Assembly (NCBI GenBank): GCA_039188945.1
Contig: JBCCYW010000001.1
Coordinates: forward strand, 43,003-107,002
Direction of reading: 5' to 3'
DNA: 64,000 bases
Origin: Patescibacteria group bacterium
GTDB lineage: Bacteria > Patescibacteriota > Minisyncoccia > Phycocordibacterales > UBA918
A model generated the notes under the pieces. It was not told the DNA's origin. It did not search any database and worked only from the letters and a program-made list of their open reading frames with translations. Both the position numbers and the translations under genes were made by a program. Shown in pieces: positions 3,330-61,223 of the stretch (positions within the stretch are counted from its first letter, which is position 1; every line of letters begins with the position of its first letter).

Positions 3330-3403
3330 GGGCCCGTAGCTCAGATGGCTAGAGCACCTGTTTTGCACTCAGGAGGTCGCTGGTTCAAGTCCAGTCGGGT
3401 CCA
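3330..3403 (+). tRNA. tRNA-Ala (anticodon UGC)
   Basis: Cloverleaf folded by hand. Acceptor GGGCCCG/CGGGTCC has the G3:U70 alanine identity pair. D arm GCTC-AGATGGCTA-GAGC. Anticodon loop TTTGCAC gives anticodon TGC. T arm GCTGG-TTCAAGT-CCAGT. Discriminator A; no encoded CCA. Confidence 0.9.
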
Positions 3404-3423
3404 CAGTGCCTTTAAGTATTTGT

Positions 3424-3545
3424 GGGCCTGTTCATTAGTCTCCCAGACTAATGAACCTCAGATGGCTAGGGGCAATAACTGCTGGGAGCAGTTATTGCGG
3501 TTTCCGTTCAGTATAGGTCGCTGGTTCAAGTCCAGTCGGGTCCAC
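3424..3545 (+). pseudogene. Degenerate tRNA-Ala-derived copy with two inserted perfect 12-bp hairpins
   Basis: It shares the 5' GGGCC and D-loop CTCAGATGGCTAG with the intact tRNA. The whole 3' half (AGGTCGCTGGTTCAAGTCCAGTCGGGTCCAC) is identical. Hairpin GTTCATTAGTCT/CCCA/GACTAATGAAC sits between the acceptor and D arm. Hairpin GCAATAACTGCT/GGGA/GCAGTTATTGC replaces the anticodon arm. Confidence 0.6.
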
Positions 3546-3578
3546 GGTCATTGTCACTATTTGTTTATGAATTATTTT

Positions 3579-3657
3579 GGGAGTCACTCAGGAGGGTTCA
3601 TTAACATGGGGTGTTAGTGAGCGGTTCAACTCAGGTCCACAGTGCCTTTAAGTATTT
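3579..3657 (+). repeat. Third, more decayed tRNA-Ala 3'-half copy
   Basis: It contains GTCACTCAGGAGG and GGTTCAACTCAGGTCCACA remnants. An exact 24-nt direct repeat GGTCCACAGTGCCTTTAAGTATTT lies at 3398-3421 and 3634-3657. Confidence 0.5.
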
Positions 3658-3670
3658 ATATGGGTCTATT

Positions 3671-4656: not shown

Positions 4657-5430
4657 ATGTCTGGATGGATACAGACAGCTCAGGCTGCTGAGGGAATATC
4701 AGTAAAACTAGACCCATATATTGTGGGAGAGTTTGCAGGTGTCGCAATTACCTCAACCATGCTAACCGTGTGGTTGGCGATGTTTTTGATTGCTGTGTTA
4801 GTAGTCAGTCTTGGTGTACTCAAAAAAGTTCCAGGCAAACTGCAAAGTATCGTTGAGGTAGTTATTGGTGGTGCATTCAATTACATGGCAACCACGCTTG
4901 GCAGCAAGGAAGCTGCGAAGAAGTATTTTCCAGTAGTCATGACTATCTTTATGTTTCTTTTAGTTATGAACTGGGTGGGACTCTTACCAGGCGTTACAAC
5001 CATTGGCTTAATGGAAGGGTATGGTGATAAGAGCCATTTGGTGCCATTCTTTTACCCACCAGCGACTGACCTCAACATCGCCATCGCGTTTGCTGTTGTT
5101 GCCATGGCTACGATTTGGTTTGCGGGCGTAGCAGCACTGGGAGTGTTCAAATACGCTAGTAAGTTTATTAGTTTCAAATCACCTCTAGCATTCCTAGTTG
5201 GTATTATCGAACTTATTTCTGAAATTGGACGCTTGGTAAGCTTCTCATTTCGATTGTTTGGTAATATCTTTGCTGGAAAAACCTTGTTGGTGGTGGCCAC
5301 ATTCTTTGTGCCGTTTATCCTGCCGGTACCAATTTTGGCGTATGAGGTGTTTGTAGGCTTTATCCAAGCTGGAGTATTTGCCTTCTTGACCTTAGTGTTC
5401 ATCAAGCTAGCTATTGAAGAACCGCATTAG
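4657..5430 (+). CDS. atpB: F0F1 ATP synthase subunit a
   Basis: Polytopic protein with the conserved Arg helix (SFSFRLFGNIFAGKTLL). First gene of the atp cluster. Confidence 0.9.
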   Translation: MSGWIQTAQAAEGISVKLDPYIVGEFAGVAITSTMLTVWLAMFLIAVLVVSLGVLKKVPGKLQSIVEVVIGGAFNYMATTLGSKEAAKKYFPVVMTIFMFLLVMNWVGLLPGVTTIGLMEGYGDKSHLVPFFYPPATDLNIAIAFAVVAMATIWFAGVAALGVFKYASKFISFKSPLAFLVGIIELISEIGRLVSFSFRLFGNIFAGKTLLVVATFFVPFILPVPILAYEVFVGFIQAGVFAFLTLVFIKLAIEEPH

Positions 5431-5510
5431 TCCCGTTAGAGATTATGAACAAGTTCACAAACAACAAAAAAGTATCATACATGACAAAACTTAATTATCT
5501 CTAACGGGAT
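5430..5510. repeat. Inverted-repeat element GTCCCGTTAGAGAT / ATCTCTAACGGGAT with a 53-nt spacer
   Basis: The left arm overlaps the atpB stop codon TAG. The same core (TCCCGTTAGAG / CTCTAACGGGA) recurs at 59993-60115. A partial third half-site ATGAGTCCCG lies at 5523-5532. Confidence 0.6.
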
Positions 5511-5586
5511 TAGTGAGTAATCATGAGTCCCGCAAACAGATCAGGCGTGACTCATAGTTGCACATTAATCACTAAGTAACTCAATT

Positions 5587-19193: not shown

Positions 19194-19334
19194 AAAGAGC
19201 TAGATGTCTCAAAACTTCTTGTGATACTACCTAAAGTAGACTCAAGCAAAGCTAGAGAGAAAGCGACTATGTTTGGGAGGGTTTGGCTGGGGCAAACAAG
19301 GAGTGATCGAATCAGTTTTGCTTGTGTGTACAAA

Positions 19335-20621: not shown

Positions 20622-23435
20622 ATGCATAAACGTTTTGATAGCGCCGCCATTGAGAAGAAGTGGCAAGAAATTTGGGCTGAACAAAAGCTCTATGAAGTAG
20701 GAGAGCGAGATACTAGTAAGGAAAAAGAATACGTACTCGTCGAACTACCGTATCCATCAGGCAATTTACACATTGGTCACTGGCACGCCTTTGCAGTACC
20801 AGACATTTACGTGCGCTTTCTGCGCATGAGTGGGAAACAAGTGATCTACCCAATGGGGTTTGATGCCTTTGGCTTACCAGCCGAAAACGCTGCTATCAAA
20901 CGCAACATCAACCCACGCGAATGGACCGAAAGTAATATTGAGTTCATGAAAGGCCAGCTCCAAAGCATGGGCGCTAGTTTTTCTTGGGATAAAACTGCCA
21001 GCACGATTGATCCTAACTACTACAAATGGACACAATGGATGTTCACAAAGTTTTTTGAAAACGACTTAGCTTATCGGGGTGAAGCGATTGTTAATTGGGA
21101 TCCAGTAGACAATACGGTGATTGCAAACGAACAGGTGTTAGCAGACGGCACCTCGGAGCGCTCGGGAGCAGTAGTGGAGAAAAAGGTGATGCCGCAATGG
21201 ATGCTTCGGATCACGAAATACGCAGACCGCCTCATTGACGACCTCGACAACCTCGACTGGCCAGAACCAATCAAAGAGGCTCAACGACGGTGGATTGGTC
21301 GCTCTGAGGGAGCGGAGATTGATTTTAAGCTATCAACTGGAGACACTGTAACTGTCTTTACCACTCGTCCAGATACGCTTTTTGGTGCCACGTATATGGT
21401 GTTAGCGCCAGAGCATGCGTTGGTTAAACAAAACAAGGATAAGATTACGAACTGGGATACGGTTGAGTCATACGTAAAGGAAGCGGCTAAAAAAGATGAG
21501 CAGGACCGCCTTAATGACACCAAAGAAAAGACTGGTGTAAAACTTGAAGGCATTACTGCCACCAACCCAGCCAACAACGAAGAAATCCCTGTCTACATTG
21601 CTGATTATGTCCTCGCTTCCTACGGTACAGGGGCAATTATGGCTGTACCGGCACATGATGAGCGTGATGGTGCATTCGCTAATAAATACAATATTAAAAC
21701 AGTATCTGTGGTATACCCTGTTACTGGTATACCACAAGAAAATCCTGAGTTTAGAGAAAGTATCGTCGCTATTGTTCATAATCCAAAAAACGATCTATAC
21801 GCAACCATTAACTGGAAAGATCCACAAAAAACTTTATTTGTTGGCGGCGGCATTGATAGCGGAGAGAGTCCTGAGCAGGCAGCAGTGCGAGAGATTCGCG
21901 AAGAAACCCCCTGTGAGCATCTTGAACTTGTTTCAAAAACTACCACAATAGAACACTCTTACTTTGCCCACTCAAAAAACGTTGCTCGAAAGATAAGCGC
22001 CATAGGTTTATTGTTTACATTAACTTCTAGTGAGGAGACGGCTCAAGCCCTTGAGGTTGATGAAGCTGACCAGTTCCATTTCGAATGGAAAGACGCTCAA
22101 ACTATCGAGCGAGAACTTGATGACGAACTTCATAAAACAGTTTGGAACATGTTGGTGAAGAAAGAGGTCTTCACTAGTACTGGAAAGCTAATGAATTCAG
22201 GTGAATTTAATGGCATGGACTCAGAAGAGGCTAAGGAAGCCATTACCAAGAAAGTTGGTGGGCGAATGACCAGTACGTACCGAATGCGTGACTGGTCGGT
22301 TGGTCGGCAGCGCTATTGGGGAGTGCCGATTCCAATTGTCTATGATCCGGAAGGTAAGGCACATGTAGTGCCTGAAGAACATCTCCCATGGCTCTTGCCG
22401 GAAGATGTCGACCACAAGCCTACCGGAGAAGCACCACTGGCAAAATCTAAAGAGCTAAAAGAGCGGACCGAAAAAATCTTTGGTAAAGGGTGGACTCCTG
22501 AAGTGGAGACGATGGATGCCTTTGTCGATTCTTCGTGGTACTTCCTTCGTTACATCGATAATCAAAACGACTCGGCTCCAGTCTCAACAGAAGCTCAAAA
22601 GGACTGGATGCCAATAGATCTTTATTTCGGTGGCGCTGAGCACACTACCATGCACCTCTTATATTCTCGTTTCTGGCAAAAAGCGCTTTACGACTTAAAA
22701 CTAGTAGCGCATGAAGAGCCATACCAGAGGCGTATCAACCGTGGGCTCATTCTTGGCCCTGATGGCAACAAAATGAGTAAGTCTAAAGGGAATGTTATCG
22801 ACCCAGACGAGCAGGTGAAACTGGTTGGCGGAGACTCGGTGAAGATGTACCTAGCGTTCATGGGTCCATATGGCGAAACCGCTAATTACCCATGGGATAT
22901 GGGTGGGATTGCTGGCATTCGCCGTTTTTTGGAGAAGGTGAATGGTTTGCATGAACATCTTGCAGACACTGAACCCGAGTCAGTGACCAAACAACTTCAT
23001 AAAACCATTGCCAAGCTCAATGACGACATTCCAGTTTTCAAGTTCAATACCGCTATCTCAGCTATGATGGTCTTTGTAAATCTAGCGGAAAAGGAGGGTC
23101 TTAGTAAAGAATCATATCGGACATTCCTCACACTACTGGCTCCATTCGCTACTCATTTGAGTGAAGAATTGTGGGAGCAGGCTGGAAATACCACTTCTAT
23201 ACATAGAGAACCTTTTCCGGAGGCAAACAAAGAATTAGTTAAAGATGATGAAGTGACCATCGGCGTACAAATTAACGGTAAGCATCGTGGTGAAATCACC
23301 ATCGCTCCCGATGCCAGCGAAACTATAGCGCTCGTGGCAGCAAAAGCCGACGCACAACTAGCAGAAAAGCTAGGGGCGAGTGAACCAAAAAAAGTCATCT
23401 ACGTACCAGGCCGGATTCTTAATATTATTATCTAG
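20622..23435 (+). CDS. leuS: Leucyl-tRNA synthetase with an embedded Nudix-hydrolase domain
   Basis: HIGH-type motif PYPSGNLHIGH. CP1 editing-domain motifs TTRPDT and GTGAIMAVPAHDERD. KMSKS. An extra ~160 aa between CP1 and the catalytic core carries the Nudix box GGIDSGESPEQAAVREIREETP. Confidence 0.95.
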   Translation: MHKRFDSAAIEKKWQEIWAEQKLYEVGERDTSKEKEYVLVELPYPSGNLHIGHWHAFAVPDIYVRFLRMSGKQVIYPMGFDAFGLPAENAAIKRNINPREWTESNIEFMKGQLQSMGASFSWDKTASTIDPNYYKWTQWMFTKFFENDLAYRGEAIVNWDPVDNTVIANEQVLADGTSERSGAVVEKKVMPQWMLRITKYADRLIDDLDNLDWPEPIKEAQRRWIGRSEGAEIDFKLSTGDTVTVFTTRPDTLFGATYMVLAPEHALVKQNKDKITNWDTVESYVKEAAKKDEQDRLNDTKEKTGVKLEGITATNPANNEEIPVYIADYVLASYGTGAIMAVPAHDERDGAFANKYNIKTVSVVYPVTGIPQENPEFRESIVAIVHNPKNDLYATINWKDPQKTLFVGGGIDSGESPEQAAVREIREETPCEHLELVSKTTTIEHSYFAHSKNVARKISAIGLLFTLTSSEETAQALEVDEADQFHFEWKDAQTIERELDDELHKTVWNMLVKKEVFTSTGKLMNSGEFNGMDSEEAKEAITKKVGGRMTSTYRMRDWSVGRQRYWGVPIPIVYDPEGKAHVVPEEHLPWLLPEDVDHKPTGEAPLAKSKELKERTEKIFGKGWTPEVETMDAFVDSSWYFLRYIDNQNDSAPVSTEAQKDWMPIDLYFGGAEHTTMHLLYSRFWQKALYDLKLVAHEEPYQRRINRGLILGPDGNKMSKSKGNVIDPDEQVKLVGGDSVKMYLAFMGPYGETANYPWDMGGIAGIRRFLEKVNGLHEHLADTEPESVTKQLHKTIAKLNDDIPVFKFNTAISAMMVFVNLAEKEGLSKESYRTFLTLLAPFATHLSEELWEQAGNTTSIHREPFPEANKELVKDDEVTIGVQINGKHRGEITIAPDASETIALVAAKADAQLAEKLGASEPKKVIYVPGRILNIII

Positions 23436-45784: not shown

Positions 45785-45911
45785 TCCGAAATAAGTGTAT
45801 TTTGATCAAATCTCGACTCGCACACTCCTTGTGCGCCCCAGCCAAACCCTCCCGCACATAGTCGTTACTCGCTGAGATTTGACACAAAACACACATTAGC
45901 AACCTGAACAC

Positions 45912-59980: not shown

Positions 59981-59992
59981 TAAACTTCTGAT

Positions 59993-60115
59993 ATGAGTCC
60001 CGTTAGAGTCTGCGGCGGCGCACTTATAAGTATTTATATTTCTATACCATGGTCGAAAAAAATAATCTTTCAGGCATAAAGCTTCTGAACGACAGCCTGC
60101 CTCTAACGGGATGAG
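59993..60115. repeat. Second copy of the TCCCGTTAGAG inverted-repeat element (92-nt spacer)
   Basis: Left arm ATGAGTCCCGTTAGAG at 59993-60008. Right arm CTCTAACGGGATGAG at 60101-60115, which includes the murG ATG start codon. Confidence 0.6.
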
Positions 60116-61223
60116 AATTGGGTTTGTTGGTGGAGGCAGTGGGGGACATTTTTACCCTTTAATTGCTGTGGCTGAGAGTCTTAATCAAGCTCCAGAAAAA
60201 CCCGAGCTATATTACTTTGGGCCAACTGCTTACAACCAAGACATCCTCGACCAGCACAGCATTACCTTCATAAGAATCCCGGCCGGAAAGTTACGACGAT
60301 ACTTCTCAATTCAGAATTTTATCGACATCTTTCGTAACTTCGTCGGCCTTTTGGTTGCGTTCTATCAATTATTTAGGGTTTATCCCGACGTGATTTTTAG
60401 TAAAGGTGGCTATACCAGTGTGCCAGTACTCCTCATTGCTCGCTGGTACCGAATCCCAGTAGTCATTCACGAATCTGATGCCGTACCAGGGAAAGCCAAT
60501 AAACTAGCCGCTCCGTTTGCAAGATATATTGCTATTTCATACGACGACGCTGCGCAGTTTTTTCCTCCGGAAAAAACTGCGCTTACCGGTATTCCCATGC
60601 GCTTTGGCATTATCCAGCCACACCAAAACCCATTCACAGCTCTCGGGCTCGATCCAGCTATACCGGTTATTTATGTGACGGGCGGCTCTCTGGGAGCAGA
60701 GCGAATCAATAATCTCGTTCTTTCTTCGCTCACCAATCTCTTACCGCACTATCAAATCCTGCATCAAACCGGCCCCGTGCAAGAAGGTCTCGTAAAAGAA
60801 TCAGTTGCTGCCTTAATTAACGACCAGACATTGCGTAACCGTTACCACGTAATTGGGACAGGTTCGGTTGATTTTGTCTCCGCCGCCCTTGCAGCTGCGT
60901 CACTAGTGATTTCGCGCGCTGGTAGTACCACTATGTTTGAGATTGCTATCCACGGAAAACCATCCATCATCATCCCAATCCCAGAGGTAGTTAGTCACGA
61001 TCAGCGCACCAACGCCTACGCCTACGCCCGCACTGGCGCTGCCTCCGTGCTTGAGGAAGACAACCTCACCCCAAACTTGCTCACCGGAGAAATTAACTCT
61101 ATTATGACTGACCAAACCAAGTATCAAGAAATGGCAGGAGCAGCCAAACGCTTCACTGTAACGGATGCAGCACCAAAAATTGCTGCTCAATTAATACAGA
61201 TTGGAAACGAACATGGATCATAA
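60111..61223 (+). CDS. murG: Undecaprenyldiphospho-muramoylpentapeptide beta-N-acetylglucosaminyltransferase
   Basis: MRIGFVGGGSGGHFYPLIAVAESL (GT28 N-domain). 370 aa. Confidence 0.9.
   Translation: MRIGFVGGGSGGHFYPLIAVAESLNQAPEKPELYYFGPTAYNQDILDQHSITFIRIPAGKLRRYFSIQNFIDIFRNFVGLLVAFYQLFRVYPDVIFSKGGYTSVPVLLIARWYRIPVVIHESDAVPGKANKLAAPFARYIAISYDDAAQFFPPEKTALTGIPMRFGIIQPHQNPFTALGLDPAIPVIYVTGGSLGAERINNLVLSSLTNLLPHYQILHQTGPVQEGLVKESVAALINDQTLRNRYHVIGTGSVDFVSAALAAASLVISRAGSTTMFEIAIHGKPSIIIPIPEVVSHDQRTNAYAYARTGAASVLEEDNLTPNLLTGEINSIMTDQTKYQEMAGAAKRFTVTDAAPKIAAQLIQIGNEHGS

Follow-up and report, generated by a model that had tools for sequence, protein, structure and literature searches.

Small non-autonomous mobile elements with terminal inverted repeats are known from other bacteria, an example being the Correia elements (CREE/NEMIS) of Neisseria, which are about 100–155 bp long and whose transcripts form a long hairpin that can undergo processing and exert an effect on the gene next to it. 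Here we describe an inverted-repeat element that occurs twice in a 64,000-nt stretch of Patescibacteria DNA (the window; all coordinates are window positions, and L-numbers are labels of the genome stretches and contigs compared with it), once between atpB and atpE (copy 1) and once between ftsW and murG (copy 2). Both loci very probably represent insertions of one non-autonomous DNA transposon family of the MITE type (miniature inverted-repeat transposable elements), which is spread over the Patescibacteria (CPR, candidate phyla radiation), organisms with tiny gene-dense genomes that are thought to be poor in mobile DNA. As a MITE family, it would stand out by unusually conserved termini and by a start-codon-precise, gene-oriented mode of insertion. 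With the Correia elements it shares the small size, the non-autonomous nature, the terminal inverted repeats and the many copies near genes, whereas Correia elements have 26-bp ends, a TA duplication and Neisseria hosts, and the element described here has different termini and a 4-bp duplication. We know of no report of start-codon-precise and orientation-fixed insertion for Correia elements. All family counts given in the following come from an exact-pair scan of 185,579 species-representative genomes, refer to the matches listed in that scan, and are lower bounds.

Other described systems share individual features with the element. Repetitive extragenic palindromic sequences and the REPINs formed from them (REP/REPIN) are also intergenic inverted-repeat pairs with a variable spacer, whose arms are kept for a trans-acting protein, the RAYT; as the RAYT gene is a single-copy gene that is kept by the host, a comparable arrangement could explain very conserved arms. 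REPINs lack target-site duplications and depend for their movement on HUH enzymes that act on hairpins, whereas 93 of 133 elements are flanked by a 4-bp duplication here, which sets the family apart from REP/REPIN sequences. Rickettsia palindromic elements (RPE) are likewise small, palindromic, mobile, and tolerated in or at essential genes of reduced genomes, and some copies of the present family are read in frame as well, but RPE are in-frame inserts inside coding regions, whereas the element described here takes its place at the first codon, which it rebuilds, and there is no sequence relation. Duplication of 4 bp at A/T-rich T..A targets is found as well with DDE transposons of the piggyBac/IS1380 type (TTAA for piggyBac), which we mention as a lead only. 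The piggyBac terminus, which we take to be CCCTAGAAAGATA, resembles the (T)CCCGTTAGAGATA found here; this resemblance is short and possibly a coincidence, and in our element the duplication and the CCC are separated by an additional T/A, where the 4–5-bp duplication of piggyBac/IS1380-like transposons adjoins their CC(C) termini directly. Integron attC sites are imperfect palindromes of 60–140 bp between genes, and GTTAGAG and CTCTAAC resemble their core and inverse core, but attC sites have RYYYAAC at the 5′ side and GTTRRRY at the 3′ side, whereas the order here is reversed (GTTAGAG 5′, CTCTAAC 3′) and the last core base is a G, not a pyrimidine. An attC assignment was rejected also on account of the 4-bp flank repeats, the location at 5′ ends of housekeeping genes instead of 3′ ends of cassette ORFs, and the absence of cassette arrays. 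Palindrome-associated elements derived from IS200/IS605 were rejected as well: they have hairpins at both ends and neither inverted repeats nor a duplication, whereas the present element has repeats and a duplication, and a hairpin at one end only.

In the window, the core TCCCGTTAGAG is found without mismatch at four sites, 5431–5441 (+), 5499–5509 (−), 59998–60008 (+), and 60101–60111 (−), and a search that allowed one mismatch yielded no further match. Shuffling of the window gave an expectation of 0.69 matches, and four were reached in none of 100 shuffles; inverted pairs with a gap of 41–101 nt were expected 0 times by chance, and two are present. The preliminary description of this DNA was hence correct in recognizing one recurrent element in two pairs, and its spacer lengths hold as well, 53 nt and A-rich for copy 1 and 92 nt for copy 2. 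It had paired two 14-mers, the first starting at 5430, as reverse complements; 13 of the 14 positions are indeed complementary, and the perfect inverted repeat comprises 13 bp and begins at 5431, with weaker similarity between the arms running on to about 25 nt. The inverted repeat of copy 2 comprises 11 bp. No more than these two copies were detected in the window, either by the core at up to two mismatches or by nhmmer family profiles, and no copy follows within 6.8 kb past the window end.

The evidence for insertion comes from the flanks and from related genomes. Copy 1 is embedded in a 4-bp direct repeat TTAG (cat-TTAG, element, TTAG-tgag), and copy 2 in a 4-bp direct repeat TGAG (at-A TGAG, element, TGAG-aatt). 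Related Saccharibacteria-like contigs were gathered by protein similarity, and in the four that cover the atpB–atpE junction (AtpB 73–77% identical), CCGCA(C/T)TAG is directly followed by TGA(A/G)TAATCA. Where the relatives read CCGCACTAG joined to TGAATAATCA, the window reads CCGCATTAG, then 79 nt plus TTAG, and then TGAGTAATCA, and it thus departs from the relatives by exactly the 79-nt element and the second TTAG. At the ftsW–murG junction, 23 contigs were compared (19 metagenome contigs with MurG 57–65% identical, and four more distant ones), in which the ftsW stop is followed by 15–25 nt and the murG ATG, and the element motif was found in none of the 23. L122, for example, has TGAtacactaactggtATGAGAATTG at the position where the window has TGAtaaacttctgatATGAG, 114 nt, and TGAGAATTGG. 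The empty sites in the relatives are precise, and each of the two window copies is therefore an insertion specific to its lineage, by which 4 bp of target were duplicated.

These data bear directly on the interpretation given in the preliminary description, which had argued against a MITE and for a native, non-mobile device, either paired operator half-sites for a dimeric regulator or a long-range RNA stem that acts on the downstream gene. The two window copies have only their arms in common, the 176-nt stretch that contains the copy 1 stem together with a native hairpin is strongly stable (z = −5.5), and the copy 2 stem takes in the A of the murG AUG, all of which would suit such a device. 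It is contradicted by the target-site duplications and the precise empty sites, by the occurrence of more than 130 elements at unrelated genes (96 downstream genes without a common function), by tandem and nested copies, and by the fact that the same operons function without the element in relatives. We therefore consider a native device highly improbable. At the RNA level, the long stem could influence the downstream start as a secondary consequence of transposon insertion.

The native hairpin next to copy 1 has to be distinguished from the element. It occupies 5510–5568 in the atpB–atpE spacer, comprises 59 nt with 21 pairs, four of which show compensating changes in five genomes, and is kept in relatives that do not have the element. 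The duplicated TTAG of copy 1 represents the first four bases of this hairpin and lies at the atpB stop, and the duplication keeps both the stop codon and the base of the hairpin. A third half-site ATGAGTCCCG, which had been assigned to the element, is present at 5523–5532, but it falls inside the native hairpin, where L151 has ATGAGTCTCG at the same place; because the hairpin is conserved in element-free relatives, ATGAGTCCCG is not part of the element. For the subunit c gene, the hairpin itself may act as a signal in processing, stability, or translation.

Beyond the window, the terminal pair was found in at least 120 genome stretches, nearly all of them from Patescibacteria/CPR assemblies, where we estimate that about two would be expected by chance. 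The hits cover Saccharibacteria, Parcubacteria/Paceibacteria, Wolfe-, Kaiser-, Yanofsky-, Lipton-, Nomura-, Campbell-, Harrison-, Kerfeld-, and Sungiibacteria, and others, and a few GC-rich matches that are labeled as other phyla and have no flank repeats (L021, L045) may be chance hits. At least 133 elements were counted, with lengths of 32–192 nt and a sharp peak at 116–123 nt, and many assemblies carry several copies per genome; the window carries two in 64 kb. Identical 4-nt flanks are present in 93 of the 133 elements, as compared with 11% for randomly paired flanks. The favored targets are TGAA/TTCA (52), followed by TGGA, TGAG, TTGA, and TTTA, mostly of the T..A form. The search demanded exact termini, so that all listed copies carry the 11-nt core, and some additional copies in the same loci carry the compensated terminal variant TCCCGTTAGAAG / CTTCTAACGGGA; because these variants retain TCCCGTTAGA, the latter represents the invariant core, and the invariant-core pair can be written TCCCGTTAGA ... 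TCTAACGGGA. Nested copies (L028, L088), tandem copies that share one common 4-nt spacer (L036, L049, L062), and near-identical copies at different genes within one genome (L118, L038, L106) were found as well. The family thus combines the features by which MITEs are recognized: terminal inverted repeats at both ends of the window copies and of the listed family, a target-site duplication of fixed length (TTAG/TTAG, TGAG/TGAG, and the 93 of 133), a small size without an internal transposase gene (79 nt for copy 1, 114 nt for copy 2), and dispersed copies with presence or absence between related genomes. The preliminary description had itself named many copies with conserved internal sequence as a finding that would speak for a mobile repeat, and this is what the genome-wide scan revealed. 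Neither Rfam (the window at the gathering threshold, seven loci at E up to 1) nor the searchable literature (the sequence itself, and MITE, inverted-repeat, and leaderless themes combined with Patescibacteria names) contained a match or a description, and the family is apparently undescribed. A function as DNA uptake sequence was rejected, as the motif is present solely as flanked pairs, and a presumed orthologous insertion in L080 and L113 was rejected because the flanking genes are unrelated.

What is unusual about the family is its position relative to start codons. Of the 133 elements, 97 contribute their last A as the first base of an ATG with which an open reading frame (ORF) of at least 60 codons begins; among elements of at least 95 nt, the count is 89 of 108, and a further three lie in tandem arrays upstream of a gene of this kind. 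The previously noted link to gene boundaries is therefore real and extends over the whole family, with the arms as its constrained part. At the target ATGAA, insertions at starts versus elsewhere amount to 48:4, compared with 115:388 for the free sites in the same loci (called starts versus other non-coding DNA, with crude gene calls), which corresponds to an odds ratio of 40 (p = 1e-23). Target-sequence preference alone is insufficient to explain the start-codon position. The downstream genes are ordinary and unrelated, with 142 Pfam families among 96 proteins, and include pheT, frr, rplQ (L17), rplI (L9), adk, epimerases, and glycosyltransferases. The element is therefore not a gene-specific regulatory RNA. 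A cis-regulatory RNA or riboswitch would be associated with a related gene set at orthologous positions, and the element is missing at the orthologous murG and atp junctions and has no Rfam match. Other repeated landing sites are stop codons, as in the case of copy 1, and TTGACA hexamers with a TTGA duplication, and at both types of site the duplicated 4 bp leave the signal intact on both sides. In L063, L065, L077, L100, and L117, the copies off start codons sit within such a TTGACA, which resembles a −35 box, with the duplication TTGA and an intact TTGACA downstream. In L024, L107, and L116, copies of 65–71 nt are in frame with the downstream gene, and the retained ATG would therefore add an N-terminal extension of 22–24 residues that starts with MNPVR.

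Insertion is also oriented. The gene-proximal end has the arrangement ACGG-stem-loop-stem-CCT-R-Y-CTCTAACGGGA in 58 elements, and the mirror arrangement was found in two; of 85 elements, 64 carry a stable local hairpin at their proximal end and seven at their distal end. The hairpin stem varies with compensating changes (GGAAAT/ATTTCC, GGTCGC/GCGACC, GGTTGC/GCAACC, GATTGT/ACAATC). Strand-specific motifs occur in the interior as well, with 24 CGGG versus three CCCG and 31 GTCG versus three CGAC in 71 elements. The earlier view that the arms are conserved and the spacers are not thus applies to the two window spacers, which are unrelated, but not to the family, whose interiors have conserved strand-specific features. 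In all 11 cases in which the gene lies on the locally minority strand, the orientation of the element matches the gene, and a replication-linked orientation was rejected on this basis.

Several findings do not fit easily with a simple MITE family. A perfect 4-nt flank repeat is missing in 40 of the 133 elements, and an inverted-repeat pair that exactly flanks a tRNA-Thr(UGU) gene (L114, 2731–2821), where it lengthens the acceptor stem by 10 bp, shows no flank duplication. For a MITE family, it is unusual that a terminus of 10–11 nt is identical over very distant lineages; the near-invariant ends could also be under constraint by a host function, with the caveat that a search for exact ends exaggerates the invariance. 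The start bias (odds ratio 40) and the orientation bias (58:2) are far above those of ordinary MITEs, so that more than plain transposition must be involved. Finally, no transposase and no autonomous element with these termini was found in about 0.9–1 Mb of Patescibacteria DNA or in the window. In the loci, terminal pairs 0.4–5 kb apart whose flanks agree turned out to be nothing but small copies next to one another, none of the ten large window ORFs encodes a transposase, and apparent single termini had partners with one mismatch or were chance 10-mers within a gene. The matches to ATGAATCCCGTTAGA in a scan of viral contigs were mostly chance 15-mers, one of them within a viral ORF of 491 codons, and the 1553-bp "pair" that recurred in one phage proved to be false. 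Because no transposase was found, mobilization in trans is something that we infer. We retain the MITE-type family as the very probable explanation of both loci.

As to the mechanism, the conserved arms with the core TCCCGTTAGA are the terminal inverted repeats, and insertion duplicates 4 bp of the target. A transposase supplied in trans would bind these termini and make 4-bp staggered cuts. The element starts with T and ends with A, and when it enters between the A and the TGNN of a start region, the left side keeps the old ATG, while the last A of the element and the duplicated TG form a rebuilt ATG for the gene, as copy 2 did at murG. The bias would come either from a targeting of transcription or translation start sites, or from selection for copies that are compatible with expression. 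After transcription, the arms may pair as a stem of 11–14 bp that includes the A of the AUG, and at leaderless-type starts the element would occupy transcript positions +2 to +5 and be transcribed as a new leader. The retained ATG would open an upstream ORF that begins with M-x-P-V-R and that, where it ends near the new ATG, could hand ribosomes over to the gene.

Shine-Dalgarno sequences are essentially missing from the window organism (about 60 gene starts, e.g., 1340, 2667, 35817, 37071, 56248, 62637), and TAnAnT boxes are found 6–12 nt before many of its ATGs and at more than half of the family insertion sites. Relatives have TACACT or TACAAT 7–9 nt ahead of the murG ATG. Judged from these motifs, leaderless or near-leaderless mRNAs appear to be widespread in the window organism and its relatives, and many targets of the element would be leaderless-type starts. 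The TAAACT at 59981–59986 may accordingly be the native leaderless-type murG promoter, which copy 2 would have split from murG. A consensus scan detected no promoters or terminators on the gene strand of either copy; the sole promoter-like match lies on the minus strand of copy 1 (5503–5474) and is no more than what shuffled sequence yields.

On this background, the mobile family may have been co-opted as a start-codon cassette, which would extend the MITE reading rather than replace it. The element would then provide a 5′ leader that is transcribed from a host promoter and whose structure gates the AUG, with reinitiation after the upstream ORF, or with a cut of the stem that releases the mRNA. 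Such a role would agree with the location of copies directly on start codons of essential genes, with the coupling of orientation to the gene instead of the majority strand, and with the lack of Shine-Dalgarno sequences together with the −10-like boxes, which place the retained ATG at or near the transcript 5′ end. The frame of the retained ATG reads the left terminus as M-x-P-V-R, whereas the other two frames meet a TGA or TAG there, and this frame remains open over the full element in 27% of the copies, compared with 7–14% for the other five frames; element lengths divisible by three are enriched (41 of 84). The upstream ORF ends at the right-terminus TAA 4 nt before the rebuilt ATG in 19 of 73 cases, and at a TGA that overlaps the ATG in five of 73, which is compatible with termination-reinitiation. 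However, the open-frame statistics are soft because related copies are not independent, and most copies carry early stops in the upstream frame. The upstream ORF of copy 2, which starts at the original murG ATG and runs into the element (MSPVRV...), has 28 codons and stops 31 nt short of the murG ATG, and the fold of copy 2 is not unusually stable compared with shuffled sequence (z = −1.1). In the orthologous pair L107/L116, the elements are 83% identical with compensating stem changes, whereas the third codon positions of the adjacent genes are 46% identical, and this suggests constraint after insertion, for a pair that was, however, ascertained by its exact termini. In the hairpin, 38 G-U pairs face 23 A-C near-pairs, and the sense and antisense folds are about equal (−38.0 versus −37.7 kcal/mol), which is weak evidence for a structure at the RNA level over one at the DNA level, and a palindrome that acts in the DNA would fit equally well. 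We therefore regard the cassette function as possible but tentative.

A more specific version would be that the element, or an autonomous parent that has not been seen, is specialized throughout the superphylum for landing in sense orientation on the start codons of largely leaderless genes, where it would be expressed from host signals and pass the ribosomes on to the host gene. In this case, the host promoter and ATG would be kept at the 5′ end of the element and an ATG rebuilt at its 3′ end; the left terminus would serve as the open frame M-x-P-V-R, and the right terminus as the stop 4 nt before the rebuilt ATG. We judge this rather unlikely in such a general form.

The tRNA-Thr pair in L114 also has to be considered with respect to RNA processing, as the elements could be cassettes that carry a stem as a signal for an enzyme such as one of the RNase III type, by which whatever the arms enclose or precede would be set free, in the manner of the stems around rRNA and tRNA precursors. 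The exact flanking of the tRNA gene with the 10 additional base pairs on the acceptor stem is in line with this, the 14-bp terminal stem and the adjacent 6–9-bp hairpin of the long class could stack to about two helical turns, and a cut before the AUG would recreate a leaderless mRNA, which the organism apparently uses. Yet this is a single tRNA example, RNase III cleaves within stems and not at their base, and the duplicated flanks are left unexplained unless processing is combined with mobility. As an explanation for the family, a processing stem is improbable, and the MITE-type insertion, which accounts for the duplicated flanks, is preferred.

The features of the two window copies are compiled in Table 1. 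According to Pfam, the flanking genes encode ATP synthase subunit a (atpB), ATP synthase subunit c (atpE), FtsW, and MurG. The atpB stop TAG (5428–5430) adjoins copy 1, which is a short, hairpin-less derivative of the family that landed on this stop codon. Copy 2, a long-class member with slight decay, sits on the murG start codon in the usual orientation and matches the nhmmer family profile with E = 7.5e-10 on the plus strand and 0.033 on the minus strand. The A at 60111, the final base of its right arm, is the A of the murG ATG; the MurG ORF spans 60111–61223, and this start is supported because the match to the N-terminal domain (Glyco_transf_28) begins at residue 4. No exact match was present in the protein collection for the MurG call or for the first window protein.

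Table 1. Coordinates of the two element copies in the window and of the sites associated with them.
Feature	Position	Strand	Basis or remark
Left target-site duplication of copy 1, TTAG	5427–5430	+	Read from sequence; includes atpB stop TAG 5428–5430; single (C/T)TAG in relatives
Copy 1, 79-nt short derivative with A-rich interior, no subterminal hairpin	5431–5509	.	Missing from the atpB–atpE spacer of L147, L149, L151, and L152
Left terminal inverted repeat of copy 1, TCCCGTTAGAGAT	5431–5443	+	Repeat pair I12
Right terminal inverted repeat of copy 1, ATCTCTAACGGGA on the + strand	5497–5509	−	Repeat pair I12
Right target-site duplication of copy 1, TTAG	5510–5513	+	Also first four bases of the native atpB–atpE hairpin
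TAAACT, −10-like box 6 nt upstream of the original murG ATG	59981–59986	+	Putative; from relatives and window genes
Original murG ATG (59993–59995) and left target-site duplication TGAG (59994–59997)	59993–59997	+	L122 empty site reads ...ctggtATGAGAATTG
Copy 2, 114 nt, typical long-class member in usual orientation, CCTGCCTCTAACGGGA end adjoining murG	59998–60111	+	nhmmer profile; missing at 23 related junctions
Left terminal inverted repeat of copy 2	59998–60008	+	Core match
Right terminal inverted repeat of copy 2, last base is the A of the rebuilt murG ATG	60101–60111	−	ORF 60111–61223; Pfam
Right target-site duplication of copy 2, TGAG, bases 2–5 of murG	60112–60115	+	Read from sequence; junctions of relatives

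The family is unusual in that its termini are near-invariant over very distant lineages and in that its insertions fall on the first codon of genes, essential genes among them, and leave that codon intact. It accounts for odd long "intergenic" gaps and for duplicated ATGs, and gene callers should beware of false short ORFs that start with MNPVR. It also represents a handle on translation start in organisms without Shine-Dalgarno sequences, and insertion at transcription or translation starts in a fixed orientation, as a principle of targeting, would be of interest to research on mobile DNA and to the building of tools for the few genetically tractable Saccharibacteria.

Apart from the element, a 50-nt block (CGACTATGT..GGGAGGGTTTGGCTGGGGC..ACAAGGAGTG) occurs in opposite orientation at the intergenic positions 19264–19313 and 45815–45864 with 86% identity, and it has no relation to the element. 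In the region 3330–3659, three related blocks of about 50 nt each are found near one another, of which ARAGORN calls a tRNA-Ala (3330–3404) and an unusually long 93-nt tRNA-Pro(GGG) (3453–3545), with the third block (3610–3659) uncalled; Rfam reports only the first tRNA in this region. The leucyl-tRNA synthetase ORF at 20622–23432 also matches a NUDIX domain at residues 378–495, which is an unusual insertion.

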